Below are positions 467 through 24,110 of a stretch of DNA of 64,000 bases, one piece after another. Position 1 is the first letter of the stretch. Every line of letters begins with the position of its first letter. The DNA is from an uncultured bacterium (lineage in GTDB: Bacteria; Cyanobacteriota; Vampirovibrionia; Gastranaerophilales; Gastranaerophilaceae). The translations under genes and the position numbers were made by a program. The stretch spans positions 588 to 64,587 of the forward strand of contig CAISJE010000076.1 in assembly GCA_903885635.1 (NCBI GenBank). Direction: 5' to 3'. The notes under the pieces are model-generated. The model was not told where the DNA came from. It saw only the letters and a list, made by a program, of their open reading frames with translations, and ran no database searches.

Positions 467-2425
467 GTGGACAAGAACTTAAATAAAGATAAAATATGGT
501 TATCTCAAGATGAAGCTTCAATTTTGTTGGGCATTAATGTTCAAACTTTAAGGAAAAATTGTAGAAAAGGTTTGTTTTCTTTCCAAATTAAAAAAATAAA
601 CAACAAAATTGTTTATTATGTCTTATTAAATTCTTTACCTTTGAAATATCAAGATAAATACTTCAGTAAAGATGTAATTGATAAAAATGGAATAAATAAC
701 GCCTATTCAGAAGCTCCTGATTGGGCAAAGTTGCAAGCCGAAAAATATTTAATGATTTTGAACCAATGTAAAAATTTATATGGAAGTAAATTAAAAGAAT
801 TTATTGAAAATTGGAATGAAAATAATCCCAATTTAATAACTTCATATCAAAGCATAAACAGAATGAGAAAAAGACTTGAACTATATGGGGTCTCAGGATT
901 ACTTGCCCAATATGGAAAAAATTTCGGTAAAACAAAAATCAAAGAGGAATATTTTAGTTATTTTAAAAACCTCTGCTTGGTCGAAGGTGCTCCCTCATTT
1001 TATTCTTGTTGGGAAATTACAAAAGGATTTGCTATTAGAAATGATGAAATAACAAAAAATGGATTCCCTGGCTACTTAGCCTTTAAAAGAAGATTAGAGC
1101 GTGAAGTGCCAAAACAGGCAATATATCTTGCTCGTTATGGCTATTCAAAATGGAATAAAAAATACGGAACCTATATCGAAAGAGATTATTCAAATATTAT
1201 TTGCGGCACAGTATGGGTTGCCGACCACGCACAAATCGATGTTGCTTGCCTTATGGAGGATGGCAGAGTAGTTTTTCCTTGGGTTACAGCTTGGCGTGAT
1301 TTTAAATCAAGTAAATGGCTTGGTTGGCTTTTACAGCCGGACAATCCAAATTCAGACCATATATTTCAAAGTTTTTATTACAGTGCTGAAGAATATGGAT
1401 TACCTACGGATGTTCTCATCGATAACGGAAAAGACTTTAGATGTAAGGATTTTGCAGGGGGCAGGAAAAGCTTAAAGCTTGAGGTCAATGAAGCAAGAAC
1501 AACATCAATGCTCGCTGAATTAAATGTAAAAGTGCATTTTGCTTTGCCGTATAACGCACAGACAAAACCGATTGAAAGAGATTTCTTAAAAATCAAAGAA
1601 CTTTTATCAAAACATTGTGTTGGCTACAGGGGCGGAAATGTTGTCGAACGACCTGAAAAACTCGCTGATGAAATTAAAAAAGGCAAATTAATTCCTTTTG
1701 ATAAATTCAAAGAAATTTTTGATGATTTTATTGTGAATATTTTAAACAAACGCCCATCTCAGGGTAAGAATTTAAAAGGGTTATCCCCTGATGAATTATT
1801 TAATTCAGAATTCAAAGAAAAAATTACAGTTTCAAAAGATGCCCTAAAGCTTTTCTGTATGAGAACTTCAAGGACTTATACAATCGGCAGAAACGGAATC
1901 AAAGACGGAAGTTTAGATATTACATATTGGGCAGATTGGATGATTTCTAAATATGGTCTAAAAGTTTATCTGAGAAGAGATATAAAAAATTACAAGGAAG
2001 CTTGGGTGTTTCAAGAATCTAATAACGAATTTGTCGAAAAAGCTTATGCAACAAAAGCGATTGTGGCTCTCAATGCCGAAGGGATTTCAAAGGATGAATT
2101 CAAAGAAGCCATCAGTAATAAAAAACGGATTAACAAAGTTGTTCAAGCCTATGCCAAACAAACTCAGGAAATCGGCATTGAAGAACAATGTCAAAATTAC
2201 AAAGCAGCATATTTGAATTCTGCTGCTGAAGCTAATCCAAAAATTTCTAAAATTGCAAATACTAATATGGATAAGGCTGTAAGAAAAAATAGAGAACAAC
2301 AAAAAGTCGGAAAACAAAATCTTTCTATTTTAAAAGATTTTGGAAATACTTCTGAGAAGTTTTATTTATTTGAAACGGATTTATTATTAGAGCAAGAATC
2401 AAAAGGAGTTAAATATGGATATTAG
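467..2425 (+). CDS. Mu-type DDE transposase (MuA-like)
   Basis: 652 aa, GTG start, N-terminal HTH (LSQDEASILLGINVQTLRKNCRKG). Candidate DDE triad in VADHAQID, LIDNGKDF and KPIERDF. Overlaps the downstream MuB-like gene by 11 nt. Confidence 0.85.
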   Translation: MDKNLNKDKIWLSQDEASILLGINVQTLRKNCRKGLFSFQIKKINNKIVYYVLLNSLPLKYQDKYFSKDVIDKNGINNAYSEAPDWAKLQAEKYLMILNQCKNLYGSKLKEFIENWNENNPNLITSYQSINRMRKRLELYGVSGLLAQYGKNFGKTKIKEEYFSYFKNLCLVEGAPSFYSCWEITKGFAIRNDEITKNGFPGYLAFKRRLEREVPKQAIYLARYGYSKWNKKYGTYIERDYSNIICGTVWVADHAQIDVACLMEDGRVVFPWVTAWRDFKSSKWLGWLLQPDNPNSDHIFQSFYYSAEEYGLPTDVLIDNGKDFRCKDFAGGRKSLKLEVNEARTTSMLAELNVKVHFALPYNAQTKPIERDFLKIKELLSKHCVGYRGGNVVERPEKLADEIKKGKLIPFDKFKEIFDDFIVNILNKRPSQGKNLKGLSPDELFNSEFKEKITVSKDALKLFCMRTSRTYTIGRNGIKDGSLDITYWADWMISKYGLKVYLRRDIKNYKEAWVFQESNNEFVEKAYATKAIVALNAEGISKDEFKEAISNKKRINKVVQAYAKQTQEIGIEEQCQNYKAAYLNSAAEANPKISKIANTNMDKAVRKNREQQKVGKQNLSILKDFGNTSEKFYLFETDLLLEQESKGVKYGY

Positions 2426-3293
2426 AGCAGAATTAAAGCTTCTGATGAACGAAAAAAAATACAGCTTTTCAACAGTTGCAAAAGCCACCGGTATTTCTGC
2501 AACAAGCATTAATCTATGGTTGAATGATAATTATAACGGTAATAATGACAAGGTTGCCGATACAATTAACAACTTTATTCAGCGTGAAAAAGAACGTAAT
2601 TTTAAAAGTTTTATTCCATATGTCGAGACCTCAATTGTCAAATATATCCACGAAGTCGCAAAATTATGCCACACAAACGGAGAAATCGGCGTTTGTTATG
2701 GCGAATCAGGTTTGGGAAAAACTGTGGCTGTAAAAGAATATTCTAAACAATATTCCGATGCGATTTTAATCGAGACTGATCCCGGATATAACCCAAAATC
2801 ATTGCTTTGCGAAATGCACAAAAGATTGGGCTTATCAGCGAAAGGAACTTCCTATGCACTTATGGATGAAGTTATCCGAAAATTAAGTAATTCCGGCAGA
2901 TTATTAATTGTAGATGAAGCGGAAAATCTTCCATATAAAGGACTTGAAGTTCTTAGAAGAATTTACGACAAAACTGGTGTTGGAATGCTTTTAGTCGGGA
3001 TGCCGGCTTTGGTTGAAAATTTGCGTGGTAGTCAAAATCAATATAAGCAGCTATATTCAAGAGTTGGATTTTCAAAATCGTTGGACAGACTTTTACCAAT
3101 TGATATATCAAATATTTTAAGCTCACTCAAAGAAAATCAAAAACTTTGTCCAAGTTTCCTTACATACTCCAAAGGAAATACAAGAACACTGGCAAAACTG
3201 ATTTTGAGAGCTCCAAGCGTAGCGAAATACAATAATAAAGAATGTTTGGACACAGAAGTAATTAAACAAACATCGCAGTTAATTATGGTTTAA
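2415..3293 (+). CDS. MuB-like AAA+ transposition ATPase
   Basis: Walker A GESGLGKT, Walker B LLIVDEAENL, N-terminal HTH-like FSTVAKATGISATSINLWLN. Position immediately after the transposase. Confidence 0.8.
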   Translation: MDIRAELKLLMNEKKYSFSTVAKATGISATSINLWLNDNYNGNNDKVADTINNFIQREKERNFKSFIPYVETSIVKYIHEVAKLCHTNGEIGVCYGESGLGKTVAVKEYSKQYSDAILIETDPGYNPKSLLCEMHKRLGLSAKGTSYALMDEVIRKLSNSGRLLIVDEAENLPYKGLEVLRRIYDKTGVGMLLVGMPALVENLRGSQNQYKQLYSRVGFSKSLDRLLPIDISNILSSLKENQKLCPSFLTYSKGNTRTLAKLILRAPSVAKYNNKECLDTEVIKQTSQLIMV

Positions 3294-3304
3294 GGGGCAG
3301 TTAA

Positions 3305-3448
3305 ATGACAAAAATTGAAAAACAATTTTATATTTTTTTAATCGCATTATCTCTGATTACACTTGGGGTTCAAATCGGAATCGCCCATGGCAAAAAATTA
3401 CAAGTTGAAGATATAAGGAACGATTATGAGTACACTTGCACAAATTAA
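3305..3448 (+). CDS. 47-aa single-pass membrane peptide (below the ORF-track cutoff)
   Basis: ATG at 3305 preceded by AAGGGG. Product MTKIEKQFYIFLIALSLITLGVQIGIAHGKK... has one hydrophobic helix. Overlaps the next gene's start. Confidence 0.3.
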   Translation: MTKIEKQFYIFLIALSLITLGVQIGIAHGKKLQVEDIRNDYEYTCTN

Positions 3449-3860
3449 AAAAATTCATACATTAAAAAATGTTCTTCAGCTTGATGATGATTTATACTTT
3501 GATATGCTTATGAGTTTTGGCGTTCAAAGTTCCAAAAATTTGACAACCACCGAAGCAGGAATTTTCTTGGAGATTTTAGAAGAAAAAGCGGTGTTAACAA
3601 ATAAATGGGAAGTCCGAAACAAAAAATATGAAGAATTAACATCCCGAGATGAAGATATGGCTACACCTGCACAATTAAGAATGATTGAAGCAATATGGCG
3701 TGAGGTTTGCTATGTTGATACCCCTGAATTTGCAAAACAATCGCTCAGGAAATTTATACAGAATAAATTTAAAATCGCAGACATTAAATTTTTAACTAAA
3801 AAGAAAGCTGTAAAAGTTATCGGAGCAATATCTGCAATGAAACAGAAATTAATAGGGTGA
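3426..3860 (+). CDS. GemA / Mu gp16-like (DUF1018-type) early protein
   Basis: N-terminal IKKIHTLKNVLQLDDDLYFDMLMSFGVQSSKNLTTTEAGIFLEILE resembles the gp16 family pattern. Position after the MuB-like gene. Confidence 0.5.
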   Translation: MSTLAQIKKIHTLKNVLQLDDDLYFDMLMSFGVQSSKNLTTTEAGIFLEILEEKAVLTNKWEVRNKKYEELTSRDEDMATPAQLRMIEAIWREVCYVDTPEFAKQSLRKFIQNKFKIADIKFLTKKKAVKVIGAISAMKQKLIG

Positions 3861-3901
3861 AGATACACCTTGAGTACATATTAAGTAAAAGGAGACAAGA
3901 A

Positions 3902-4315
3902 ATGACAGGATTAGAAACACTCAAAAGGGAATCATTTGAGACAATTACAGCACTGGAGGCAATGGCGACTATGGAAACAATAACAACTTTAGGAACAATG
4001 ACAGGACTAGACGAAATTAGAAAACGCACTTTAAATACACTGAAAGAAATTAAAAACATCAAAGAACAAGTATTAGATACGAATAAGGTTTTAGAAAAAA
4101 TCTTATTCGTAATAAGAGACGATATCAAAAATTATGAGGACGAATTGATGAATGCAAAAGCCGAATTAGCAGATATTGATTTGCATACGCTTGATTGGCA
4201 TCACAAAGAACCTCGTAAAATTAAATGTAAGGCTCTAGAAGCCAAGATTGAAGAACTATGGCGTAAGGAAAAGCTTGTGTTGAGCTTTTTTCAAGAGGAA
4301 TTAATTAAGGCATAA
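3902..4315 (+). CDS. hypothetical coiled-coil protein (early region)
   Basis: ORF 3857-4315; preferred ATG at 3902 after AAAGGAG. Charged helical sequence. Confidence 0.45.
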   Translation: MTGLETLKRESFETITALEAMATMETITTLGTMTGLDEIRKRTLNTLKEIKNIKEQVLDTNKVLEKILFVIRDDIKNYEDELMNAKAELADIDLHTLDWHHKEPRKIKCKALEAKIEELWRKEKLVLSFFQEELIKA

Positions 4316-4353
4316 TTCTTTAATTAAATACATTACAAAACAGAGGAGTTTTT

Positions 4354-4647
4354 ATGGAATTGGAAACACAAACAAAACCTTGGATGCAAAATATTACGCC
4401 TGAAGATATGCCAAATGATGATTTAAGATTCATTGCCGAAAAAGCAGGACTTAACGCAGCACTCGCATTAATTGTATATACTCCCGGGCTTATCGTTCCA
4501 ATTCCTAAAAATGCCTTTAAGCAGCTTAAAGACAAATATATTTTAAATAATTATAAATGGAATAAATATTCAATGAACGAGTTATCCGTAGAATGTGAGG
4601 TTACGCCAAGATATATTTACAAGTTACTAGAACAAAGAAAATCCTAA
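4354..4647 (+). CDS. Mor/C-like transcriptional activator of middle/late genes
   Basis: 97 aa with C-terminal HTH MNELSVECEVTPRYIYKLLEQR and central GLIVPIPKNAFKQLKDKYI, typical of the Mor family layout. Last gene of the early operon. Confidence 0.5.
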   Translation: MELETQTKPWMQNITPEDMPNDDLRFIAEKAGLNAALALIVYTPGLIVPIPKNAFKQLKDKYILNNYKWNKYSMNELSVECEVTPRYIYKLLEQRKS

Positions 4648-4668
4648 TTCATACTTCCAGCTATTCTT

Positions 4669-4694
4669 AAGCCCTCAATCGAGGGCTTTTTTTT
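4669..4694 (+). terminator. rho-independent terminator ending the early operon
   Basis: Stem AAGCCCTC / GAGGGCTT, loop AATC, followed by a T8 run. Confidence 0.65.
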
Positions 4695-4789
4695 GTCAAA
4701 TAAATAGAGCCTCTTTTGGATAAAGAAGCTCGGTAGTTGTAAGATAAATCATGCTCATGTTAACCATATTTTTCAGATAATGCAAATGC

Positions 4790-5182
4790 TTAACATTGTT
4801 TATTCGTATTTTTAACTTCAATATCAATTATGTGTGTTTCAAAGTCTGGACCCAACGCATTTCCGAACCAATTAAAAGCTGTTCTTAAATCAGACTCAAG
4901 ATTATTCGCCAACCAAATAACGCCCTGTGCCTCTTGGATGGCACATTCAATAACAATACAGCCTAAGTCATATTCATCGCTTTTTTCTTTGTCACATTTT
5001 ACGAAAAATGTCTGATCTAGGATTTCATTTTTAACAATAAAGCCATCATGAACCATTTCGACAGTTTCTAAAACCAGCTTTAGTCCTGTTTTAATTTTCA
5101 GTATGTGGAGGTTATCACGAACCCATTCTTCTAATCCGTAATGCTCGTCAAAATTCGCCATAATTGTTAATTTTTCAGTCAT
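4790..5182 (-). CDS. hypothetical protein, possibly a degenerate NucS/PD-(D/E)xK-like domain
   Basis: ORF 4790-5215 with several candidate starts. LEEWVRDNLHIL...DLGCIVIECAIQE loosely resembles nuclease-fold proteins. Divergent from an XRE gene. Confidence 0.4.
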   Translation of the reverse strand: MTEKLTIMANFDEHYGLEEWVRDNLHILKIKTGLKLVLETVEMVHDGFIVKNEILDQTFFVKCDKEKSDEYDLGCIVIECAIQEAQGVIWLANNLESDLRTAFNWFGNALGPDFETHIIDIEVKNTNKQC

Positions 5183-5280
5183 AAAAAAATACTTCTTTAA
5201 CATTGCTACGAGCAAGATTTTACATTAAAACATTGCTAATAGCAATAGAATTTTATAGAAAAGTGCTATATAAAAGAAGA

Positions 5281-5508
5281 ATGAGTAAAAAAATTAACAA
5301 GCCCTATCATAAAAAAGTTGGTAGTAGGATTAGATTTTATAGAAAAGAAAAGGGTTTAACACAAGAACAATTGAGCTTGGAAATAGGTCATTCAAATTCC
5401 TACATGGCTATAGTGGAAAATGCCCAAAGAGATTTACCTCTATCTCAGATACAAAAAATTGCCAAAGTCCTTGATATAGAGCCATGGCAATTATTAAAGT
5501 TTGATTAA
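5281..5508 (+). CDS. XRE-family HTH regulator (candidate prophage repressor or immunity regulator)
   Basis: KVGSRIRFYRKEKGLTQEQLSLEIGHSNSYMAIVENAQRDLPLSQIQKIAKVL is a canonical XRE HTH. ATG at 5281 preferred over the track start 5203. Confidence 0.7.
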   Translation: MSKKINKPYHKKVGSRIRFYRKEKGLTQEQLSLEIGHSNSYMAIVENAQRDLPLSQIQKIAKVLDIEPWQLLKFD

Positions 5509-5834
5509 AACAAAATTTCTCCAATATATTTTTTCAATCTTTGAACATCGGTTTTAAATTCAACTTCTGCTGCAGAAGCCTTATGTCTATAAGTAACGTG
5601 GTGGCTGAGTCCGTTTGGCGTGTTCATTTCTGAATATGGAATTGAATAAATCAGTTCCCATTTTTCATCTTTCAAAATATATGCCCTTGCGTAGCATTGC
5701 ATATCATAAGAGTCTGATTTGAGTTCGAGCTTTATTCGTTTTTCTTCTAGCTTATAAATTTCTCTAAAATTTATAGATTGAGAACCTTTATAGGTGATTT
5801 TTTCTATTGTTATTTCTTTTATTTTTTTTGACAT
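5505..5834 (-). CDS. hypothetical protein
   Basis: ORF 5505-5861; ATG at 5834 is preceded by AAGGAG. Confidence 0.45.
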   Translation of the reverse strand: MSKKIKEITIEKITYKGSQSINFREIYKLEEKRIKLELKSDSYDMQCYARAYILKDEKWELIYSIPYSEMNTPNGLSHHVTYRHKASAAEVEFKTDVQRLKKYIGEILF

Positions 5835-5918
5835 GGCATTCTCCTTAAATTCTTTATTCATGCGGGTTTAGGATTGGGGCAAATTGGAGCAAAATTATTT
5901 TTTACTCTTCAACTGGAG

Positions 5919-6128
5919 TTATGTTGTCCATCGCTGTGTTATTTTTAATCTTATATCAGATAATACTGAACGATATTCATCTGACCAGCAGGTTCCTGCT
6001 ATTTTGCATGCATATTTAATTGTAAGTACTTTTATTGTATCGCTGTCCAAATTACAAGTTTCACGCAATAATTCAATAGCATTTAAAAATTTTTCTTCTA
6101 GCATAATATTATTTTTTTGAATTTTCAT
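5919..6128 (-). CDS. hypothetical small protein, possibly a frameshifted paralogue of the next gene
   Basis: 69 aa. Its 3' end carries, out of frame, a copy of the C-terminal coding sequence of ORF 6145-6351. Confidence 0.35.
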   Translation of the reverse strand: MKIQKNNIMLEEKFLNAIELLRETCNLDSDTIKVLTIKYACKIAGTCWSDEYRSVLSDIRLKITQRWTT

Positions 6129-6144
6129 TTCATATCTCCTTTAA

Positions 6145-6351
6145 CTAATTTTCAACGGGTGTTATGTTATCCATCGCTATGTTGTATTTTTTACCATTTT
6201 CATCAACGCAGGTTGCGAAGGGTACATCTATAGCTCCGTTTGAACTCCAAAAAGTGTTATCCCAAGTACAGATTAATAAGCCGATTGATTTTGTTTCGTT
6301 GTTAAAAATTTTTGTTCCGTAAAGTAGGTTGCTTTGATTTTTTAGTGTCAT
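6145..6351 (-). CDS. hypothetical small protein
   Basis: ATG at 6351 after AAAGGAG. Preceded by the conserved 71-nt leader at 6378-6448. Confidence 0.45.
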   Translation of the reverse strand: MTLKNQSNLLYGTKIFNNETKSIGLLICTWDNTFWSSNGAIDVPFATCVDENGKKYNIAMDNITPVEN

Positions 6352-6377
6352 AATTTTGTCTCCTTTGTTGTGTATCC

Positions 6378-6448
6378 ACAATCACATTAATCACTCTGTG
6401 TTCCTGTAATTGGAACTCTTTAGGACTATTCTGTATCATTAAGACACA
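6378..6448 (-). promoter_or_regulatory. conserved 71-nt upstream leader, copy 1
   Basis: 52/71 identical to 7561-7631, with near-identical ends (ACAATCACATT.. / ..TTAGACTATTCTG.ATCATT..GACACA) and a divergent centre. Confidence 0.45.
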
Positions 6449-6454
6449 TTAGTT

Positions 6455-6712
6455 TTAACGAATAAATCTTTCTATAAACCACTCACAATTTGCATATGAA
6501 TTAAAATTCCAACGCAGTTCAAAATAAAACTCTGCCTTGTAATCCCTAGTGTCTATTTTAAAAGGCAACAAAAGCCCTCTATTAGCCTCATGTTGCGAGA
6601 AATCAGATATTGCCAAGTCTAGTTCATTAGCAAATTTTGCATTGAACTCGGTGAGAGTAATAACCTTACTCTCACCATTTCTTCTGTTTTTTATTTGTAA
6701 TAAACGATTCAT
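6455..6712 (-). CDS. hypothetical protein
   Basis: 85-aa ORF, same strand as its neighbours and tightly spaced. Confidence 0.4.
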   Translation of the reverse strand: MNRLLQIKNRRNGESKVITLTEFNAKFANELDLAISDFSQHEANRGLLLPFKIDTRDYKAEFYFELRWNFNSYANCEWFIERFIR

Positions 6713-6724
6713 TAAATTGTCTCC

Positions 6725-7540
6725 TTATAAATACTTTGTAAACGTGCTTTTGAACTCTTCAGCCATTCTGATTTGTTCTTTTACTGCGGTTTCCCAATTT
6801 GTTTCTTGAGTAATATCAGCCGAATAAACTTTTCTTATTCTGCTTGATTTTTTACCTTTAAGTTCTTGCCAATCAAGCTCCCCGAGTTGTTTTTCGATTT
6901 TGTCTTTCAATTTTTCCAGTGAATAAAATATTCCTTTATCATTGTTAATCAATAATTCACAGCCGACACAATTTTGTTGAGTATTAATTGTTAATTGAAT
7001 TGAAACCCCTGCTTTACCTATTGGAATATATTGCCAATGTTGAGAGGCAGGTTTTACTTGCATATCGCTTTCAAGGCAGTCGCAAATTTCAAAATATTTT
7101 GTCCAATAATTTAATTGAAGTTGCTTCGTATCCGTTTCTGAATGTCGTTTTGTAATTTTTTGAGGTTGAACGATTGTTTCAAATGCCATTTTATTACCGT
7201 TTAAATAGGCTTTAAATAAGAAAATCCCACAACCTTTTACTAAAAATGAATTCAAGCTTTTAATACTTTGAACCAAGGTTTCTTTTTCATTCGCCACAAC
7301 CCAAACAATAAAGGGAGGTTGTTTGTATTTTTGAATTTCGGCTAATGTACTGATAAGCGTATCCGCACTTTGAGTTAATTCTGCAACTGTAGCAATTACT
7401 TTGCCGTCAGCTTGAGGATAATCCGCTAAAGTTCTAATAATGTCGCCCTTGTCGCAGTCTTTAAAAAAATCTTCAAAGTTTTTTCGGCTTTTGAAAGCCT
7501 GTTCTGCGGTGAGGGATAATGTTTCTGTGGTTTTGTCCAT
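6725..7540 (-). CDS. hypothetical protein with a DUF4268-like C-terminal half
   Basis: C-terminal NYWTKYFE...WQYIPIGKAGVSIQLTINTQQNCVGCELLINNDK...LKDKIEKQLG resembles the DUF4268 pattern as I recall it. ATG at 7540 after TAGGAGAA. Preceded by the conserved 71-nt leader at 7561-7631. Confidence 0.45.
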   Translation of the reverse strand: MDKTTETLSLTAEQAFKSRKNFEDFFKDCDKGDIIRTLADYPQADGKVIATVAELTQSADTLISTLAEIQKYKQPPFIVWVVANEKETLVQSIKSLNSFLVKGCGIFLFKAYLNGNKMAFETIVQPQKITKRHSETDTKQLQLNYWTKYFEICDCLESDMQVKPASQHWQYIPIGKAGVSIQLTINTQQNCVGCELLINNDKGIFYSLEKLKDKIEKQLGELDWQELKGKKSSRIRKVYSADITQETNWETAVKEQIRMAEEFKSTFTKYL

Positions 7541-7560
7541 AATTATTCTCCTATTTTTGT

Positions 7561-7631
7561 ACAATCACATTTATCCCTCGCAATAGCTTTCATTTAAAGT
7601 GTTTTAGACTATTCTGAATCATTTGGACACA
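7561..7631 (-). promoter_or_regulatory. conserved 71-nt upstream leader, copy 2
   Basis: See copy 1. Lies 21 nt upstream of the ATG at 7540. Confidence 0.45.
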
Positions 7632-7645
7632 ATAATTCTGGCAAA

Positions 7646-7936
7646 TTATTTTCTCAAATTTGCGACTATTCCAAGTAAATGATTTGCAAACGATTCAAGA
7701 GCGTTTACACCCTGCTCAAAACAATAATTATCAACATCATTCGGTGTTGTGTTGATTTTGTCTTTCAATTTGAACAGGCTATCGACCGCAGGTTGTGTGT
7801 ATTTTGCAAGGTTTTCGTATAGCTTGGTTATACAATTTGGCACGTTTTTTTGAATCAGATTCATGATAAACGGCTCGATTAATAACCAAATTACGTTTAA
7901 TTTTTTCCAGTTTGTGAGTAATGCTAAAAAGTTCAT
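7646..7936 (-). CDS. hypothetical protein
   Basis: 96-aa ORF; ATG at 7936 preceded by AAAGGAAAAG, immediately downstream of GC-rich element A. Confidence 0.4.
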   Translation of the reverse strand: MNFLALLTNWKKLNVIWLLIEPFIMNLIQKNVPNCITKLYENLAKYTQPAVDSLFKLKDKINTTPNDVDNYCFEQGVNALESFANHLLGIVANLRK

Positions 7937-7950
7937 AGTGCTTTTCCTTT

Positions 7951-8028
7951 CTTGGTTGCTCGCAATAAACGGGTCTACACGGCAAGGCTCTTCGCCTTGA
8001 CCGTTACGCCCTCTGCTCGCAATCCGCT
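7951..8028 (-). repeat. GC-rich structured junction element, copy A
   Basis: On the minus strand it reads AGCGGATTGCGAGCAGAGG, then a hairpin (7979-8004), then CCGTTTATTGCGAGCAACCAAG. It spans the amidase stop and ends just before the RBS of the next gene. Confidence 0.6.
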
Positions 8029-8525
8029 TTCTTGATTTGAGTAATATACCAACTGATTTTATTTCTTAAATATTCTCCAATCTTTTCTTTTTCCAAATTT
8101 GGTAAAAATGGGAGATAAGTAAAATCAATTTTTCCATAGCTTGTTGTTTTAGGATGTTCGAGTCCGAATTCATGATGCGTAAATACAGCTTCAGGCGAAA
8201 CCTTAATTCCGTATTTAATACAAAGTTCTGCTGCCAATTTGCAGAATGCTTCGACCTGAATTTTGGTAAGCGGATATTTTGTTTTTTTGTCTTGTAAATT
8301 AAAATCAGCCATTCCAAGTGCAGACAAGCCGATACATCCAGTATTACCCCCTCCGCAATGCATAGCATATTTATTGGGTTTGCAGATTAAATTATCTTCG
8401 GGCTTAAATCGTCCCTGATGAACCTTCCCAAGAGCATCAACAACAAAATGATATGCTTTTAAATCAACCTCGCAAGGTGAAGATGCACCGGCACTCCAGT
8501 GTAAACAAATTTTAGTTAGTGGCAT
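8004..8525 (-). CDS. N-acetylmuramoyl-L-alanine amidase-type endolysin (Amidase_2/PGRP-like)
   Basis: N-terminal ICLHWSAGAS...YHFVV...H and a later HCGGGNTGCIGL, typical of T7-lysozyme-like amidases. Last gene of the tail operon. Confidence 0.65.
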   Translation of the reverse strand: MPLTKICLHWSAGASSPCEVDLKAYHFVVDALGKVHQGRFKPEDNLICKPNKYAMHCGGGNTGCIGLSALGMADFNLQDKKTKYPLTKIQVEAFCKLAAELCIKYGIKVSPEAVFTHHEFGLEHPKTTSYGKIDFTYLPFLPNLEKEKIGEYLRNKISWYITQIKKADCEQRA

Positions 8526-8538
8526 ATAGTTCTCCTTT

Positions 8539-8889
8539 CTATGTTAGATTTATTAATTCTTCTCTCAGTGCTTGAACTTGTTCGGTATAAAAATCAAGCC
8601 AAGTTTCGCCCGTTGATTCGTCTTTTATTTGTGGCTCACAAATTGCCCTGACTCTTTTTTTATCAAGCTCATCAATTTGTGCTTGAAGGTTAACTTTTGT
8701 CGCTTGATTTTCAGCCTGAGTAATTTTGTTTTTATACTCTTGGGTTTTTGAAATATCAGTTAAAACCCCGTCAAGCACTTCATATTTGTTTAGGTCAAAA
8801 CTTGAATAATCTATATCGACAAATTCATAATCCAAATAAGGGAAATCGCACCAGCTTAATAATTGATTGTTTTTAATTTCTACGTACAT
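8539..8889 (-). CDS. putative tail-fibre assembly chaperone
   Basis: ATG at 8889 after AAAGGAAAA, directly downstream of the tail fibre gene. Call is by position only. Confidence 0.4.
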   Translation of the reverse strand: MYVEIKNNQLLSWCDFPYLDYEFVDIDYSSFDLNKYEVLDGVLTDISKTQEYKNKITQAENQATKVNLQAQIDELDKKRVRAICEPQIKDESTGETWLDFYTEQVQALREELINLT

Positions 8890-8909
8890 TATTTGTTTTT
8901 CCTTTCTTT

Positions 8910-11258
8910 TTAAGCCCCCAAACAAGGGTAAAACACTAAACTCAGAGCTCTTGCAGTTGCATAAGCTGCTTTGTAATATATTCCTTTGGAAATAGGCATT
9001 AAAGTGCCGTTCCCGAAGCCTTGACCATCAAATCTGCTTACTGAGAATGATGTCCAGGTTGAATTGTTGTAACTTACGTAAAAAGTTGAACCAAAATCTG
9101 CTTGAACATACACATAACCATCTGATTCAGCTTGATATGAAATATTCCAAGACTTGCTGATACCATTTGCATAATTTGGCATGGATAAATTCGGAATGGA
9201 TTTTGCTAAATTATTCCCGAGTGCAAGTGCTGTTTGAGTGGTAACATCATATCCGTTTTGATTAAAAGGACTTGTGGTAACCGCTGTAATTATAGAGTTT
9301 GCGACCGTTACAGTACCTAAAATTACATATTGAGTTTCTACCCAAGCACCGCCTACATATTTGTATGTTTTTAATCCCATAGCCGTTAAACAGTGGTAAC
9401 AACGATCGATGGGGGCAGTTGGGAAAGTTTTTCCTTGAGATATTTTTGTTGATATTACAGAAATAGGGTTTGAACCTGCTTCTTTTAAAATTGTATAACC
9501 TCCATCAAGAAGTACAGTGCCACTTGCATTTTCAACTAATATTTCAACCTCATTTACGGTCAAGTAATCAGTGCCGTTATTTACAATACTATCTAAGAAA
9601 AATTCGTTCGTATCCACAGGCGTGGGAAGCATATAGACTCGTCTTTGTGAGGTTGTCCATCCGATTTCATTGGTTCTTGTATCAATAATATTGCCTGATG
9701 CATCTTTTAGCACCCAAGATTTGGGCGAACGGAGTAATAAAGCGGGTTCGTAGTTTCCTGTTATTGCATAACCCAATATTTTACCAAAAGTTCCGGTATT
9801 TTTATGGAACTTTAAAAAGCCTGTTGCCGTTGAAGACCGATAACGAGTTGTAACGGAATTATCCGCCGAATTCCAAGCTGGCTCTGCTTCTGTTGTAGCC
9901 GTTAGCGTAATCCCGTTACTTGAATTTGCAGTTAATATAGGCAAAGAATTACTAACTTTTGTTCTAATATCTGTTATACTCGTCAAACTTGTTAATACTT
10001 CTTGTGATTTGTCCGCATAAGTCAAGGTTAAATTGGAATAAGAACCGCCGACCTTGAAAGATACAGTTGTACCAGTACAAGAAAGCAAATCAGCCTCTCC
10101 ATTATTAAGGTTCCCTGAATTCGGGCAGCATTTAGTAGAAAGATTTGGGAGACTGTTGGTAACATAATCTTTTACGTTTTTGTATGAAGGAATATCTAAG
10201 TCAGCCGAAGCACTTACCACAGCAGAATAAGACAAAAGACTTGTCGCTGTTACAGTTCCGTCCTTTTTTAAATAATTTAAACCTGCAATATAGTCTTTGA
10301 CATTTTTGTATGAAGGTATGCTTAAATCCGCAGAAGCAGTTACGCTAGATGCATAAGATAAAAGGCTTGTAGCCGTGACGGTTCCATCTTTTTTTAAATA
10401 ATTTAATCCTGTAATATAATCTTTGACATTTTTATAAGATGGAATATGTGTATCGGCAGATGCACTCACAGCAGAGGCGTAAGATAATAATGCCGTCGCC
10501 GTTACTGTGCCATCCTTTTTTAAATAATTTAGTCCTGTAACATAGTCTTTGACATTTTTGAAAGACGGAATATCTAAATCAGCCGAAGCACTTACAACTG
10601 CCGCATAGCCAAGAAGTGAAGTCGCTTTATTTGTACCGTCCGTCTTAATAATATTGCTTAATTCAACAGACAATTTATTGCTAAGAAGTTTTAAAGTTGT
10701 GTCAAATTCAAGTGAAATAGTTCCGTTTGTATTTTTCATTGGTAAAGTGCAAATAGTCTCAGGAACATTTTCTGTAATCAGATTTATGACTTCTGAAGTT
10801 GTTGGTACAACTTGGCTTGTGGGGGTCAAAACCGCTTGCGTTTGCGGATTTGTGTAAATTATTTTTGGAGTAAAAGTTAACGGTTGGTACAATCCTGAAG
10901 CAAGGGCGAATTTATCCTGTGCCGGGAGTTTGCAGATTAAAATCAAATCGCCGTCATCATCAAAAAGCCCGAGTTCACGAATCGTAAATCCACCGACATC
11001 AGCAGGTATGAAGCATTTGTATAAAACTTCGTTTGAAGCTGACGGATTTATTACGATTTGGCTTTGAGTTCCTGCCGAGAAAGTTCCTGTATATTTTGTA
11101 TTTTTGAGTGCGGTTTGATTTTCATTTGGTTCATAATAAGTACCATTTCCATCGCCAACTTTGAATGTTGTTATGTTTAGCGGTGTGTTATTTGCCTCCG
11201 CCAAAGCTTTTTTCTGTTGTCCTTTTATAGTTAATTTATTTGTAAAAGTTTCACTCAT
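8910..11258 (-). CDS. tail fibre protein (P2 gpH / Mu S-like N-terminus)
   Basis: N-terminal FKVGDGNGTYYEPNENQTALKN...IRELGLFDDDGDLILICKLP matches the conserved fibre N-domain pattern. 782 aa with internal tandem repeats. Confidence 0.8.
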   Translation of the reverse strand: MSETFTNKLTIKGQQKKALAEANNTPLNITTFKVGDGNGTYYEPNENQTALKNTKYTGTFSAGTQSQIVINPSASNEVLYKCFIPADVGGFTIRELGLFDDDGDLILICKLPAQDKFALASGLYQPLTFTPKIIYTNPQTQAVLTPTSQVVPTTSEVINLITENVPETICTLPMKNTNGTISLEFDTTLKLLSNKLSVELSNIIKTDGTNKATSLLGYAAVVSASADLDIPSFKNVKDYVTGLNYLKKDGTVTATALLSYASAVSASADTHIPSYKNVKDYITGLNYLKKDGTVTATSLLSYASSVTASADLSIPSYKNVKDYIAGLNYLKKDGTVTATSLLSYSAVVSASADLDIPSYKNVKDYVTNSLPNLSTKCCPNSGNLNNGEADLLSCTGTTVSFKVGGSYSNLTLTYADKSQEVLTSLTSITDIRTKVSNSLPILTANSSNGITLTATTEAEPAWNSADNSVTTRYRSSTATGFLKFHKNTGTFGKILGYAITGNYEPALLLRSPKSWVLKDASGNIIDTRTNEIGWTTSQRRVYMLPTPVDTNEFFLDSIVNNGTDYLTVNEVEILVENASGTVLLDGGYTILKEAGSNPISVISTKISQGKTFPTAPIDRCYHCLTAMGLKTYKYVGGAWVETQYVILGTVTVANSIITAVTTSPFNQNGYDVTTQTALALGNNLAKSIPNLSMPNYANGISKSWNISYQAESDGYVYVQADFGSTFYVSYNNSTWTSFSVSRFDGQGFGNGTLMPISKGIYYKAAYATARALSLVFYPCLGA
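10158..10640 (-). repeat. about 3.8 in-frame tandem copies of a 126-bp (42-aa) unit inside the tail fibre gene
   Basis: Unit DGTVTATxLLSYAxxVxASADxxIPSYKNVKDYxTGLNYLKK occupies residues 207-367. Confidence 0.9.
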
Positions 11259-11261
11259 AAT

Positions 11262-11786
11262 TTATCCAATCATTATTTCATTTTCTGCGTTTGTGTAAGT
11301 TAGCCAGTCGCCTGTGGTATCAAATTGGGATTCAATACTTATTTCTTCAAGCACGCTTCTAACATTTTTGTATTCTTCAATCATTTTTTTTAGATTCTCA
11401 AAAATTTTCTGATTGTAAGGAAGGTTTTTGAAAAAAATGTCAACTTTAAAATGATACGGGTCACCGCCATATTCAAACCACTCTTGAATTTCACCGGTTA
11501 TATTCAAAGAGTTCAAAACTTTAATCAAGGCATATTTGGTGCCTTTGTAGCGGTGAAGTTCAATCGCCTTTTTAATCAAAGCACGTTTTTCATCGTCCGT
11601 TTTGGTGTTCAACCAACCTTCATAGCCCATAATATGAAATTGGCCGGCAAGATGAACAAGGGCAGACGAATCAATAGTGTCGACTAGATAAACAAGCAAA
11701 ACATTTGTATCAATATCTTGAAATCTCGCAAAAAGTTCATCAAAAACTTTTGAGGATATATCGTTTAAGGGTGTAATTTCACTCAT
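11262..11786 (-). CDS. tail protein, P2 gpI / Mu gp48-like
   Basis: LVHLAGQFHIMGYEGW...EKRALIKKAIELHRYKGTKYALIKVLNSL...EWFEYGGDPYHFKV matches the gpI family pattern. ATG at 11786 overlaps the upstream stop. Confidence 0.7.
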   Translation of the reverse strand: MSEITPLNDISSKVFDELFARFQDIDTNVLLVYLVDTIDSSALVHLAGQFHIMGYEGWLNTKTDDEKRALIKKAIELHRYKGTKYALIKVLNSLNITGEIQEWFEYGGDPYHFKVDIFFKNLPYNQKIFENLKKMIEEYKNVRSVLEEISIESQFDTTGDWLTYTNAENEIMIG

Positions 11787-12894
11787 CGATTTTGTCCTCC
11801 GAGTATGAAATATCAAAACGTTCTAAGTTTGCCCATTGATTTTCGCCGACTATAGTTAGAACGGGAGTTGTCAATTCAACATTGTAAACTCCATAAATTG
11901 CATTCAAAATCGCAATTATTTGATTCGGAACAATGTCTTTATTTAAAGAGCTTTTAAGGGTTGTTTGATAAGCCGTTAAACCCTCATTAACTGCTGTTTG
12001 AACGCTTGTTAAATCAGCGTAAGAATACAAAGTCAAAGTCGCATTTACTGTAAAAGTTTTTGTTTCAGGTTTTTTGACTATGACATTATCCGTCAGTGGT
12101 CTTATTTTATCGGCACTCAAATAATCTTGAACTGTTGCAATTAAATCATCGCTTGGTGTTCCTGTATCTGCTAGGGGGTAAATCTCCACCACGCCTGCGG
12201 ATGGCGAAATCACAGCGACATCGATTATGCTCTGATCCGCAGATAAAGTATGAAATTTATATGCTCCTTTACTTCCTGCGTTTGAAAAACTTTCGGGTGC
12301 TTGGCGAATTCTTTCTCTGTAATTATCGGCACTTTCTTCATCCTGACCGCCGGAGGCTATTGTAGTATTTTGTACGGTAAGAACATATCCGAGCGGAGTT
12401 ATTAAATTTGTAATTGAGTTGAGAGCATATCCGTTTGTCGCCGCTCCTGCGGTCGTGCAAACGGCATCAATCTCAACAGACAGCTCATGGGCTTTTATAA
12501 CTGCATCGTCAGTTGTTTCAAAAATATACTTGCCGTCATTTGATTCAATCTGAGTACCTAACGGAATTATTATGTCAAAATCTTGTGCAACTTCAAGAAT
12601 AAAAATAAATTTCGCTTTAGAAAATTTTGCCTCTAAAATAGGAACGCCCACAAGTTCGCCGATATGTTTTAATATTTCAAGCGGTGCGTAATTTAAAAGA
12701 TTGGATTTTGCGATTGCCTGTATTTTTATACGGATTAAATTTTCTCTATAAGAGCCTATATCGATTAATATTCTTTCAATCTGTGCATCTTGAAGAGTTT
12801 TTCCTGTTTTTTCCTGATAAAGTGCAATCCACTCATTAGTAACAGCGGTCGCATCTCTATCGATAAAATTCGGTTCTGGCAATTGTGTTGTCAT
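11779..12894 (-). CDS. baseplate protein J-like (P2 gpJ / Mu gp47)
   Basis: 371 aa, positioned between the gpW-like and gpI-like genes with 4-nt and 8-nt overlaps. Confidence 0.7.
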   Translation of the reverse strand: MTTQLPEPNFIDRDATAVTNEWIALYQEKTGKTLQDAQIERILIDIGSYRENLIRIKIQAIAKSNLLNYAPLEILKHIGELVGVPILEAKFSKAKFIFILEVAQDFDIIIPLGTQIESNDGKYIFETTDDAVIKAHELSVEIDAVCTTAGAATNGYALNSITNLITPLGYVLTVQNTTIASGGQDEESADNYRERIRQAPESFSNAGSKGAYKFHTLSADQSIIDVAVISPSAGVVEIYPLADTGTPSDDLIATVQDYLSADKIRPLTDNVIVKKPETKTFTVNATLTLYSYADLTSVQTAVNEGLTAYQTTLKSSLNKDIVPNQIIAILNAIYGVYNVELTTPVLTIVGENQWANLERFDISYSEDKIDE

Positions 12895-13256
12895 GCAATC
12901 ACCTCCGTAACCGAGGTTATGTCAGACTCTACAAGATTCCATTCGATTTTTATTTTTACGTTTGCCTCGTCAAGCTCTGCTGTAACTTGGCTGATTTCTA
13001 CTCTAGTCTCCCATTCAGTTATTGCATCAATAACTTCTCTAATAATATTCGGAATTGCTTCTTGAACAGGATAATCTATATATTGAAAAATATTTGAGCC
13101 AAAGGTAGGACGATGTGGAACAGAGCCTTTTTGAGTCGTTAAAATAATATAAATACACTGATTTATATCATCAATGCCCTGCACAACTTCGCCGATATCA
13201 TTCAACTTTGACTGCCAATCAACATATTTTATTTCGCTTAAAATAGTCGTCATCAA
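12891..13256 (-). CDS. baseplate wedge protein, GPW/gp25 family
   Basis: INQCIYIILTTQKGSVPHRPTFGSNIFQYID...AITEWETRVEI is a typical GPW/gp25 signature. Confidence 0.75.
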   Translation of the reverse strand: MMTTILSEIKYVDWQSKLNDIGEVVQGIDDINQCIYIILTTQKGSVPHRPTFGSNIFQYIDYPVQEAIPNIIREVIDAITEWETRVEISQVTAELDEANVKIKIEWNLVESDITSVTEVIA

Positions 13257-13765
13257 CTCATCTCCTTATCAGGAACGGATGTAGGACTTCCCATATTCCC
13301 GGTGTGAGTGTGAGGATTATATTTATCTCTCATCGCTTGCATTGAGCTTCTTTTATCAGATACATCTGCAGCAGAAATTATACCGGCAGAATTTTTTAAT
13401 GTTCCTGTTTGGTCGATATCTGAAATGACATTTATTCCAGTAAATTTGAGAGTTAAAATCCCTGTTTCTTTGTTGAAATTGATGTATGATTCATCCTCAA
13501 ATTTAATCATTAATTGAGTTTTGGAACTCGCAGGCGGAGCATCTAAGGCAGAATAAATTGCACCTAAAATCACACCTTCTTCTGAGTTAGTATCCATAAG
13601 ACAGGCGACATGTTCTCCGATGTCTGGAATAGCGTAAAATTTATCTTTTTGAGTTTTTTGTTGCAGGATTGGAAGCCAGTATGAAAGAACATCGTCATCC
13701 GCAAATTGCACACGAGCCTGTGCTAATGTAGAATTTATGTTCGTAACAATTCCAAACTTTAACAT
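13253..13765 (-). CDS. baseplate assembly protein V-like (central spike)
   Basis: FGIVTNI...ARVQFADDDVLSYWLPILQQKT...IPDIGEHVACLMD...GVILGAIYS follows the gpV pattern. Confidence 0.7.
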   Translation of the reverse strand: MLKFGIVTNINSTLAQARVQFADDDVLSYWLPILQQKTQKDKFYAIPDIGEHVACLMDTNSEEGVILGAIYSALDAPPASSKTQLMIKFEDESYINFNKETGILTLKFTGINVISDIDQTGTLKNSAGIISAADVSDKRSSMQAMRDKYNPHTHTGNMGSPTSVPDKEMS

Positions 13766-14727
13766 GATTTAATCTCCAAACTTGTCTTATATCCTGTGGA
13801 TTTATCAATTTTGTGTTTTGCCTGTGAGATGTGATATTTGCCAGAGAAATGTCCAATGCCTTTGAGCTCAATATTTATTCCTGCAACCAAATATTGATTG
13901 CCAATCAATTCGATTGTGCCTTCGATTCCTGTATCGCCTTTAGACATAGCGGCTTTAGCTTTTAATATTGCTTGTTGTTTATTCTCGCAACGAGAAGTGA
14001 TTTTTAAAGTATCGCCCTTGACAACACCTGAGTTTTTAACTGTGGTTTTAACTGTTTTGCCAGTTTTTGGGTTGTGATAACTTACCTGAACAGCCTTGAA
14101 TTTCTGACTTGTTTTCTCAGACAAATTTATTCTTGATAGATCTTTTTTATTAAATATTTTTGTCGGAAGTTCTGACTTTAATTTTTCAGTCTCATAGAAA
14201 ACAAGAGAGTCGGCTGTTATTTTAAAAATATAGCCATATTCTTCAGCAAGGTTTTTCAAGAACTCCAAATCTTTTTGTTGGTTTTGAGTTATGCGCTGAA
14301 TTTTAACATAAGCGATATTTCCTACTAATTTCAAATTATGTTTTTTCGCTATTTCTGAAGCGATTTGTTTTAACGATTTATTTTCATAAGCAATAGAATT
14401 CTTTTGTCTCAATGGCTTTTTAATGCTTGTCGCAAGTGCTTTTACAGTGATTGTATCGGGCGGAGTTTCATATTCAAGCTCATCAATTTCAAACTTTCCG
14501 CAATTAAGAAGTTTTTCGCCCTCGTAGCCGATTTTTAAAGTGAGAGCATCACCTTTTGAAGGAATCCAAGCAGAATGCCAAAGGTTTTCTGAATCTTCAA
14601 AAGTGATATTAATTTCATCACTTTGTCCATGTTCAAAGTCTGTATAATCAATGTTTGTAACATATTTTGCTACATCTCGTGTTATATTCTTATTTCCATA
14701 AATTAATTCGTATTTGGGGGTAAGCAT
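13759..14727 (-). CDS. late control gene D-like tail protein (P2 gpD / Mu gp44)
   Basis: 322 aa. N-terminal ...ITRDVAKYVTNIDYTDFEHGQSDEINITFED... is typical of gpD, and synteny agrees. Confidence 0.65.
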   Translation of the reverse strand: MLTPKYELIYGNKNITRDVAKYVTNIDYTDFEHGQSDEINITFEDSENLWHSAWIPSKGDALTLKIGYEGEKLLNCGKFEIDELEYETPPDTITVKALATSIKKPLRQKNSIAYENKSLKQIASEIAKKHNLKLVGNIAYVKIQRITQNQQKDLEFLKNLAEEYGYIFKITADSLVFYETEKLKSELPTKIFNKKDLSRINLSEKTSQKFKAVQVSYHNPKTGKTVKTTVKNSGVVKGDTLKITSRCENKQQAILKAKAAMSKGDTGIEGTIELIGNQYLVAGINIELKGIGHFSGKYHISQAKHKIDKSTGYKTSLEIKSC

Positions 14728-14732
14728 TTATA

Positions 14733-14948
14733 TTATTCTCTCCATGGGGGTAAATCGGTTGTAATTTCATCTGATGTTTCTATAACTGGTATTTTGAGTT
14801 TTATTCCTGCTTCTAGTGTCGGAGTAATTTCAACATCGGGGTTTGCTGTGATAATCGTTTCGTAGAGGGTTGCATCGTTGTAATATTTGTAGGAAATCAA
14901 ATCCCATCTGTCATTGTCCTTGGTGATGTAGTTGTAATACTCTGTCAT
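14733..14948 (-). CDS. tail protein X-like (LysM-like fold)
   Basis: 71 aa; YITKDNDRWDLISYKYYND...IITANPDV...LEAGIKLKIP follows the gpX pattern. Confidence 0.65.
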   Translation of the reverse strand: MTEYYNYITKDNDRWDLISYKYYNDATLYETIITANPDVEITPTLEAGIKLKIPVIETSDEITTDLPPWRE

Positions 14949-15367
14949 TGGACTTTAACTCCCTTTGCACTTTTCTTGGTCTTTGTCGTGACTTTGCCTG
15001 TATATTCACGCAACTTCAAATCGAGTTGAATAGAGTTGATGTAGCCCTCCTTGCTCGCTTGTTCAGTAACCGAAGAAATTTCAGAAATAACGAAAACTCC
15101 GACATATTCACCATTTCCTTTTATAAACTTGAGAGGGGTTGCTTTTTTAGCTGCTTCTTTTAGCTTTTTAATTTCCAATTCAGGAGTGCAAAAATTCGTG
15201 TGGAAATTTAATTTTATTGACTGTTCTTGCAAGTTTTCACCTAAAAACTGAAGCATTGGTTTTTGATTAATGCGTGGGTGTTCAGCGTAATTATAGGAAT
15301 TTGTTTCCTCAATTCCGTTGAAATATGTTATCAAATCAAATTTTATTTCTCCTAACTGTGCAAACAT
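14945..15367 (-). CDS. tail protein, P2 gpU / Mu gp43-like
   Basis: 140 aa starting MFAQLGEIKFDLI, located directly after the tape measure gene. Confidence 0.5.
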   Translation of the reverse strand: MFAQLGEIKFDLITYFNGIEETNSYNYAEHPRINQKPMLQFLGENLQEQSIKLNFHTNFCTPELEIKKLKEAAKKATPLKFIKGNGEYVGVFVISEISSVTEQASKEGYINSIQLDLKLREYTGKVTTKTKKSAKGVKVQ

Positions 15368-15368
15368 T

Positions 15369-17951: not shown

Positions 17952-17989
17952 TCTTCGTCTCACTCAGCATCAATTTTTCAAAATTTGCA

Positions 17990-18426: not shown

Positions 18427-18462
18427 ATTTTCTCCTTTTCATTGTTATAATTGCTCAATTCG

Positions 18463-18984: not shown

Positions 18985-18993
18985 TTTCTCTCC

Positions 18994-21865: not shown

Positions 21866-21874
21866 TTTTTCTCC

Positions 21875-22786: not shown

Positions 22787-22787
22787 T

Positions 22788-23777: not shown

Positions 23778-23840
23778 TTTATACCTTTCTAAAAAATATA
23801 TTTACTTAGTAGTGGCGAAGCACAAGGCGAGTAATTCGCC

Positions 23841-24029: not shown

Positions 24030-24110
24030 ATAATTACCTCGCTTGTTTTTTTACTGCGTTCAAAAATTTATTACTCTGTGAGTATAAGCTCTCTCTGAAT
24101 GCGTTCTCAA

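Follow-up and report, generated by a model that had tools for sequence, protein, structure and literature searches.

REPINs are doublets of REP (repetitive extragenic palindromic) units that form hairpins and are mobilized by REP-associated tyrosine transposases (RAYTs) (Bertels & Rainey 2011, PMC3116915; Nunvar 2010, PMC2817692). They have been reported in the cyanobacterium Nostoc punctiforme and, like IS200/IS605-type elements, involve single-stranded DNA (ssDNA) hairpins and no duplication (PMC3116915). The Rickettsia palindromic elements (RPE) are, in the summary given by a review, in-frame gene inserts translated as an extra peptide (Ogata 2000, in PMC3184786), and the definition of MITEs (miniature inverted-repeat transposable elements) is by terminal inverted repeats and target-site duplications (reviews PMC3184786 and PMC10969869). 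In the present study we analysed two copies (A and B) of a hairpin repeat in a 64,000-nucleotide stretch of DNA, hereafter the window, from an uncultured bacterium of the Gastranaerophilaceae (GenBank assembly GCA_903885635.1, contig CAISJE010000076.1, positions 588 to 64,587 of the forward strand), where both are carried by a Mu-like prophage. At a probability of roughly three in four, copies A and B arose separately, as insertions of a small mobile repeat that forms a hairpin, is non-autonomous and occurs dispersed in the chromosomes and phages of the gut Melainabacteria (Gastranaerophilales). On this reading the copies are a familiar kind of selfish palindromic repeat rather than a dedicated regulatory RNA, and the closest known kind is the REPIN.

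Two copies of one hairpin repeat

The boundaries of the two copies were taken from comparison with empty sites in relatives (see below), and the resulting features are as follows.

7948..8027, minus strand: hairpin repeat, copy A, insert of 80 nt, GCGGATTGCGAGCAG...GCGAGCAACCAAGAAA
7979..8004, minus strand: variable apical hairpin (P4) of copy A, ACGG-U-CAAGGC GAAGA GCCUUG CCGU
29200..29274, plus strand: hairpin repeat, copy B, in-frame insert of 75 nt, GCGGATTGCGAGCAG...GCGAGCAACCAAGCA
29224..29244, plus strand: variable apical hairpin (P4) of copy B, GGCUUGUC GAAG GACAAG-A-CC

The initial annotation had described a GC-rich element present twice, with two shared blocks around a hairpin of differing sequence, and this description was reproduced in full. 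The 19-nt 5' block AGCGGATTGCGAGCAGAGG has the same letters in both copies, the 3' blocks, CCGTTTA[T/A]TGCGAGCAACCAAG, are one base apart, and the centres are two unlike hairpins. Both copies are GC islands (0.55-0.56, against 0.33-0.40 in the surrounding DNA), both lie sense to their flanking genes, both yield the peptide ADCEQR in frame with the upstream open reading frame (ORF), and the next ATG starts 11-13 nt after the end of each. What had to be refined is the extent of the fold: in A and B alike, the whole unit, and not the centre alone, is one long imperfect hairpin. The blocks hold a direct repeat, TTGCGAGCA, whose two units pair with each other, and each copy is therefore a single long hairpin in which UUGC-GA-GCA of the 5' block pairs with UGC-GA-GCAA of the 3' block around a tandem G.A mismatch. 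A CRISPR-like mini-array of TTGCGAGCA was considered and rejected, as both repeats pair within one hairpin. The predicted fold energies are -32.8 kcal/mol for copy A (z = -3.9) and -27.6 kcal/mol for copy B.

A covariance model built from other family members (R1) scored copy B at 89.8 bits and copy A at 81.7 bits (E ~1e-21 and ~1e-19 respectively). The next-best match of R1 in the 64-kb window reached only 10.8 bits, with no third copy and none in the host part. Thus the window holds exactly two copies, far beyond chance. The apex type of copy A was also seen in three other sequences (L244, L175 and L178), and the orthologue of copy B in two related phage contigs (L011 and L018) carries the apex GGCUUGGA GAAG UCCAAG-A-CC.

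Empty and filled sites, target and family size

The prophage and the genes that flank the two copies are listed below.

467..32817, no strand assigned: Mu-like (transposable) prophage hosting both copies (Pfam MuA DDE_2, MuB AAA, GemA, Portal_Mu, Mu_F and virion morphogenesis), ends approximate
8004..8525, minus strand: N-acetylmuramoyl-L-alanine amidase (Pfam Amidase_2, E = 7.7e-11)
7646..7936, minus strand: 96-aa ORF downstream of copy A, no Pfam family
28099..29295, plus strand: C5 cytosine DNA methyltransferase (Pfam DNA_methylase over aa 9-367 of 398)
29288..30202, plus strand: Mu F-like head morphogenesis gene (Pfam Phage_Mu_F, E = 1.9e-25)

Both copies have empty counterparts. In four IMG/VR relatives (L273-L276; amidase 59-64% identical at the amino acid level) the copy A junction reads ...CAAATMAAGAAAG^GAAAAGCACTATGAAC... 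(in short form ...AAGAAAG^GAAAAGCACTATG) without a covariance-model match, and the window has exactly 80 extra bases at this position. The relatives' amidases end in ...KKGKAL followed by a TGA stop that overlaps the ATG of the same downstream ORF. In the window, copy A swaps out the last four amidase codons and breaks this ATGA stop/start overlap; the last seven amidase codons (ADCEQRA) and the stop lie within the copy, and the ribosome-binding site (RBS) and ATG of the 96-aa ORF come 11 nt after it. This ORF is kept in L273, L274 and L276 without the hairpin element. For copy B, three relatives (L277-L279) whose methyltransferases are 92-95% identical read ...GAGGAT(A)^GCGGAGGTAGAAAATGCCTGA (flank in short form ...GAGGAT(A)^GCGGAGGTAGAAAATG), again without a model match, and their proteins end in ...AKRIAEVENA. 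The 75 extra bases of the window put 25 codons into the methyltransferase, past the catalytic domain and five codons ahead of the stop, which the start of the Mu F gene overlaps; in a blastn comparison with L278, window positions 29205-29273 were skipped by the homology.

A third site was resolved between two other phage contigs, in which L188 has a 75-nt antisense in-frame copy within the 5' end of its methyltransferase gene and L011 has none. The flanks shown are identical on both sides and the insert ends are unambiguous (GCGG...CCAAGTT). Related phage contigs also differ in the number of copies, with three in L281, only a 5' copy in L284 and L297, only a 3' copy in L280 and none in L277-L279. 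Since the block is present or absent between otherwise collinear sequences, it is a discrete insertable unit, and precise presence/absence polymorphism at several independent sites is what is generally expected of a mobile element.

The element also sits inside other repeats. In the metagenome-assembled genome (MAG) BRZ_DE__bin55 the hairpin was found at either of two inner positions of a ~235-nt dispersed repeat, and in the BRZ_CP__bin33 group a different palindrome holds it in its loop, the empty form of this palindrome being found as well. The ~235-nt repeat itself (TGTCCGAACAAAATTTCAC...ACGACACTAGATTATA) looks like a MITE: it has its own internal hairpins, takes the element as a passenger and was noted at L167, L168, L170, L195, L222, L227, L229, L232, L241 and L267, all of MAG BRZ_DE__bin55. 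The host palindrome has the form CATGTCATCGCGCA-loop-TTGCGCGATCTC (L182, L184, L208, L210, L212, L258 and L266, mostly BRZ_CP__bin33), and the same BRZ_CP__bin33-type genomes contain GTGATTAAG-type short tandem repeats and a GC-rich composite starting GCGGATTTGCGGACGGACGGAG. Tandem arrays of the element with a period of 75, ending in a partial 5' block, were found in L174 (6101-6246), L252, L211 and L184. All four partial copies stop at the same point, GCAGAG, within the conserved internal loop, which may mark a nick or recombination point.

The five resolved events all agree with a single boundary, GCGG...CCAAG plus 2-3 nt. A direct repeat, CAAGAAAG, leaves the edges of copy A ambiguous by -7 to +1 nt, and the repeat GCGGA leaves those of copy B ambiguous by -1 to +5 nt. 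No target-site duplication was seen in the five empty/filled comparisons, among which L188/L011 is unambiguous. The last base to the left of the insert is A, and the first base to its right is G at 35 of the 54 distinct sites, which makes A^G the target. It frequently takes the form A^GGAG or A^AGGA, immediately 5' of ribosome-binding sites. This A^G(G/A) insertion preference is the best explanation for copies that end just before an RBS.

Insertion occurs in either orientation, in intergenic DNA, in other repeats and in frame within genes. At least 11 distinct in-frame coding insertions were found, and transposable phages are heavily colonized by such repeats, with in-frame copies in methyltransferase, Dam, MuA and portal genes. 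In related phages (L155, L173, L202 and L223) the Dam (D12) methyltransferase has a 60-nt in-frame copy near its 5' end, MAVVLEKLEK-ADCEQRAERSVGPFIASNQ-AETYPIVKWVGGK, with no alternative start codon after it, so that the copy is translated. The coding inserts are open and in frame, and neither ribosomal bypass nor splicing, both of which were considered, is needed to explain them.

The family was sized with a search pattern demanding both blocks, as exact 14/15-mers of single blocks in IMG/VR gave mostly chance matches. The both-block scan found at least 118 loci in species-representative genomes, and nearly all named records among the matches listed are Candidatus Gastranaerophilales, Gastranaerophilaceae, Melainabacteria or 'Cyanobacteria bacterium' MAGs, with Candidatus Adamsella and Candidatus Scatenecus, of the same group, also among them. 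MAG BRZ_DE__bin55 alone has at least 13 loci, most of them because they are carried by the ~235-nt repeat. We extracted 103 unique sequences of 59-93 nt, most with lengths that are not multiples of three, and more copies are present in IMG/VR phage contigs (e.g. L011, L018 and L152). Searching phage and metagenome-derived sequences, as the initial annotation had proposed, thus gave many further copies together with covariation. Of the two natures that it had offered, a small mobile palindromic element is the one borne out, by more than 100 further copies, by precise presence/absence at both window sites and elsewhere, by nesting and by tandem arrays. Rfam 15 gave no match for the whole window at the gathering score, and its permissive mode returned only chance-level matches (E > 2) outside the hairpin element. 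In the literature the sequence of the element was found in no paper, with nothing specific on Melainabacteria repeats of this kind, and the family appears to be an undescribed small palindromic mobile repeat.

Conserved fold and comparison with known mobile repeats

The fold is built from four paired segments. P1 pairs GG(A)UUGC with GCAA(N)CC and is followed by an almost invariant tandem G.A/G.A mismatch and by P2 (GCA with UGC). P2 is separated from P3 by an internal loop that is asymmetric and conserved, in which 5' (A)GA(G) faces 3' GUUUA(A/U/C/G); P3 has three or four covarying pairs (GGG/CCC, GGC/GCC, GAG/CUC, GUGC/GCAC, GGAU/AUCC, GAAU/AUUU or AGG/CCU). Above a purine-rich internal loop (GGAG or GAAA opposite GCAGA, GUAAC or GUAAU) the apex is freely variable, with 2-20 pairs and apical loops that are frequently C-GNNGA-G or GAAG. 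Two copies of one MAG (L172 1431-1509 and L180 6998-7076) are otherwise identical and differ by an inverted apical tip, GGGGCGTTGAGACCC vs GGGTCTCAACGCCCC.

In an alignment of 55 sequences, 87.8% of the cells held standard pairs, compared with 33-38% when the partners were slid by 1-3 columns, and the covariation score was 0.234, which none of 500 shuffles attained, against at most 0.086. All 13 pairs of P3 and P4 covary, with changes on both sides. P1 and P2 were fixed by the exact-match pattern used in the search; in the divergent subfamilies, which came from R1, they covary too (GGC/GCC, AAUGU/ACAUU and UUGGCGGC/GCCGCCAA). Some subfamilies have Watson-Crick pairs in place of the G.A tandem (UUGGCGGC/GCCGCCAA and UUUUUUGC/GCAAAAAA), and the AGAG/GUUUAA loop is retained in all divergent subfamilies. 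The initial annotation had taken the difference between the centres of A and B as compensatory change. Covariation holds at the level of the family, but A and B simply belong to different subfamilies.

By these features the element resembles a REPIN in several respects. Both are hairpins in the range of ~60-110 nt with two highly conserved arms and a less conserved spacer, an arrangement in which compensatory changes are common (PMC3116915), and both have many dispersed copies per genome, tandem clusters with one extra half-unit (PMC3116915), no transposase within the element and a predicted hairpin in ssDNA or mRNA. It differs in that no RAYT gene was found adjoining the copies (by weak tests over loci of +/-4 kb), and in its arms, which, unlike simple inverted REPs, have GA on either strand alike, which accounts for the conserved G.A/G.A mismatch. 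Furthermore, it is not only extragenic, as the in-frame inserts and the antisense copy of L188 show, many copies are carried by Mu-like phages, and the family is conserved across an order-level clade rather than in one species.

With RPE the element shares its behaviour, an in-frame palindromic insert translated within protein genes, and not sequence homology; in the review's summary no mobilizing enzyme is assigned to RPE either. As summarized there, RPE are 105-146 bp long, restricted to Rickettsia and unrelated in sequence, whereas the element described here has a smaller length, occurs abundantly at intergenic junctions and in phages as well, and has a sense-strand bias. MITEs such as Correia, ERIC, RUP and Nezha are likewise non-autonomous, shorter than 200 bp and able to form stable hairpins (PMC3184786, PMC10969869), and they too fuse with ORF ends, sit between cistrons and show their mobility as empty and filled sites. 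Unlike MITEs, the element left no target-site duplication in the five resolved events. Its arms pair imperfectly, and no insertion sequence with these ends was found in the loci around the copies, where only truncated partial copies of the element turned up.

The IS200/IS605 ends are two separate subterminal hairpins, the left and right ones differing, and these elements and their derivatives, the palindrome-associated transposable elements (PATEs), insert without a target-site duplication next to a short specific sequence through strand-specific hairpin recognition. The cyanobacterial small dispersed repeats (SDRs; Elhai 2008) are reportedly 21-27 nt long. The likeness to these groups lies in the lack of a duplication, the short target, the strand-specific hairpin and the nesting in other repeats; on the other hand, neither the sequence of IS200/IS605 elements or SDRs nor an associated TnpA was found here.

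By analogy with REPINs and IS200/IS605 elements, the repeat would be mobile in folded, single-stranded form, with ssDNA the likeliest state. The recognition module for a trans-acting enzyme would then consist of the lower stem and loops, which are conserved, and the apex would be free to vary. A phmmer search with an IS200 TnpA query, a weak test, found nothing among 952 ORFs within ~4 kb on each side of the copies, and a regular-expression search, also weak, for the HUH and YxxxNP motifs had no match in the same element-flanking loci. None of the prophage genes is IS200/RAYT-like. Given the weak tests and the +/-4 kb reach of the loci, the RAYT result is a lack of support and not a disproof.

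It is conceivable, if rather improbable, that the repeat represents an unrecognized class of single-strand mobile element. Its RNA-like core, namely the tandem G.A mismatch, the AGAG/GUUUAA loop and the purine-rich loop, would then be read by an enzyme outside both the RAYTs and the known insertion-sequence transposases; Mu-like phages would vector it between Melainabacteria, and it would perhaps be co-opted as an intercistronic RNA signal, for example between MuA and MuB. A route through an RNA intermediate would likewise accord with the sense-only bias inside genes. If the enzyme is indeed new, the conserved loop motifs would amount to a new recognition system for hairpin transposition, and the element would gain interest from this or from junction copies that prove functional.

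As a mobile repeat, the element explains the GC-rich 'islands', the odd C-terminal tails (ADCEQR...) and the apparent fusions and truncations in Gastranaerophilales MAGs and phages, as gene callers run ORFs through it. With it, the REPIN/RPE-type phenomenon reaches the non-photosynthetic group that is sister to the Cyanobacteria, and what sets the element apart is the RNA-like conserved core together with conservation across an order-level clade and heavy colonization of Mu-like phages. The covariance model can serve as a marker for this uncultured clade and for linking phages to hosts.

Alternative explanations and neighbouring genes

Several observations weigh against the reading as a mobile repeat. 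No IS200/RAYT-like ORF was found in ~1 Mb of element-flanking DNA, and no excision product or transposition intermediate was observed. Purine-purine mismatches outnumber pyrimidine-pyrimidine mismatches (85 vs 27) and G.U pairs outnumber A.C (33 vs 15). The conserved loops look like RNA motifs (the tandem G.A, a UAA/GAN-like loop and GNNGA/GNRA-like apical loops). Adjacent long ORFs are co-oriented with the element 35:9, canonical copies within coding regions are sense 11:0, with nine of the 11 in one frame, and the copies at the MuA-MuB junction are nearly identical across phage lineages in which MuB is only 45-75% identical.

These points bear most directly on the serious rival, a dedicated cis-acting RNA. 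On this account the element would primarily act within the polycistronic mRNAs of phage and host as a signal for processing, stability or translation coupling, spread due to its usefulness, with the conserved loops as a protein-binding or tertiary motif. Besides the sense bias and the MuA-MuB copies, it can draw on the at least 12 of 54 distinct sites that lie 8-25 nt upstream of a start codon, on the purine-rich internal loops and GNNGA/GAAG apical loops, and on the stability of the sense strand, which folds better than the antisense strand in 100 of 103 copies (means -27.9 vs -22.3 kcal/mol, on average ~5.6 kcal/mol more stable). However, there are antisense copies inside genes (at the methyltransferase 5' end of L188 and in MuA of L197), copies within other non-coding repeats, in tandem arrays and in divergent intergenic regions, and the closest prophage relatives function without either copy. 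The pre-RBS position is accounted for by the A^G(G/A) target preference, and no Rfam family matches. We therefore consider a primary regulatory function unlikely.

The structured RNA at cistron junctions that the initial annotation had put forward is thus unlikely as the primary nature of the element, in view of the copies in both orientations, in coding sequence and in repeats, while a secondary effect may stand, in view of the sense bias. Both window copies would put a stable hairpin (-28 to -33 kcal/mol) into polycistronic mRNA, and any effect on mRNA stability or translation would be a by-product of insertion. For the mobile repeat, a preference for sites behind in-phase AAA/AAG/GAA codons can produce the frame bias, together with a hydrophilic sense-frame peptide that would be better tolerated. 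The MuA-MuB junction copies (L159, L161, L163, L196, L238, L197, L242 and L206) have diverging immediate flanks, and L159 and L161 differ by a compensatory G-C to A-U change. Their near-identity fits selection in situ as well as recurrent insertion, with gene conversion as a third option, and the retention at this junction, with the sense-strand bias, is the reason why the mobile repeat may have a secondary role at the RNA level. In the window itself MuA and MuB overlap (2415-2425), and the hairpin element that many relatives have between these genes is absent.

An integron attC-like site is suggested by the conserved lower stem, the internal loops, the variable terminal structure and the location at gene 3' ends, and an intrinsic terminator by the GC-rich hairpin, yet we regard both as very improbable. 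There is no RYYYAAC/GTTRRRY core pair, GTTTAAT being in the internal loop opposite AGAG and not a paired R box, the whole hairpin is the inserted unit, with its boundaries outside the stem, and neither an integron integrase nor ORF cassette arrays were found nearby. As for a terminator, the stem is not followed by a T-run, its 3' flank consisting of CCAAG and purines, and a terminator scan called neither copy on either strand.

The two copies are inverted relative to each other, with near-identical blocks of 19 and 22 nt, and the initial annotation had allowed that they might recombine and flip the ~21-kb segment between them. The comparison with relatives does not support this. Two IMG/VR contigs (IMGVR_UViG_3300028571_002339 and 3300028553_002705) lack both copies and yet have the same arrangement, in which the amidase is reversed and the methyltransferase, ~17-20 kb away, is forward; hence no inversion is involved. 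In addition, no recombinase adjoins either copy, each site has its own empty allele, and flipping 8.0-29.2 kb would part the portal gene from Mu F. We find such an inversion scarcely credible.

Least probable of all, to the point of being negligible, is a conserved protein-coding module (ADCEQR...PFNASNQ) at protein ends: nine of the 11 coding-internal copies do use one frame, but orthologous amidases and methyltransferases lack the segment, many copies lie between genes, most lengths cannot be divided by three, a stop follows after seven codons in copy A, L224 reads the same junction in another frame, and the compensatory base-pair changes were selected at the nucleic-acid level. The check on orthologues against which the initial annotation had set its reading thus came out in favour of that reading, ADCEQR being an incidental read-through of the insert and not a domain.

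The prophage gene set also comprises Amidase_2, the C5 methyltransferase and a D12 methyltransferase, and relatives of the prophage are present in Gastranaerophilales MAGs, which together with the base composition of the window points to a host from this clade. GenBank phage blastn gave no match for the amidase region and only distant methyltransferase matches for the methyltransferase region, and the window has no tRNA genes. Beyond ~32 kb the GC content falls, the host DNA being AT-rich (27-33% GC), and a DNA/RNA non-specific endonuclease gene (32910-33590, minus strand) lies where the prophage appears to have its right edge. A DUF4268 protein (6725-7564, minus strand) is encoded immediately downstream of copy A, in a variable region that has other sequence in L272. 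The related Mu-like phage L011 has a 180-aa tyrosine-recombinase-like ORF (4309-4851) downstream of a G-like gene, with no counterpart in the window at that position. In L234 (~6095-6185) a 22-nt tandem repeat, GAGGTTATTGCGAGCAAGCTGG, holds the ATTGCGAGCA core and is not the hairpin element. The late genes of the prophage form divergent operons, with terminase, portal, C5 methyltransferase, Mu F, Dam and G on the plus strand (24.7-32.5 kb) and head, tail, fibre and lysis genes on the minus strand (23.8-5.5 kb).

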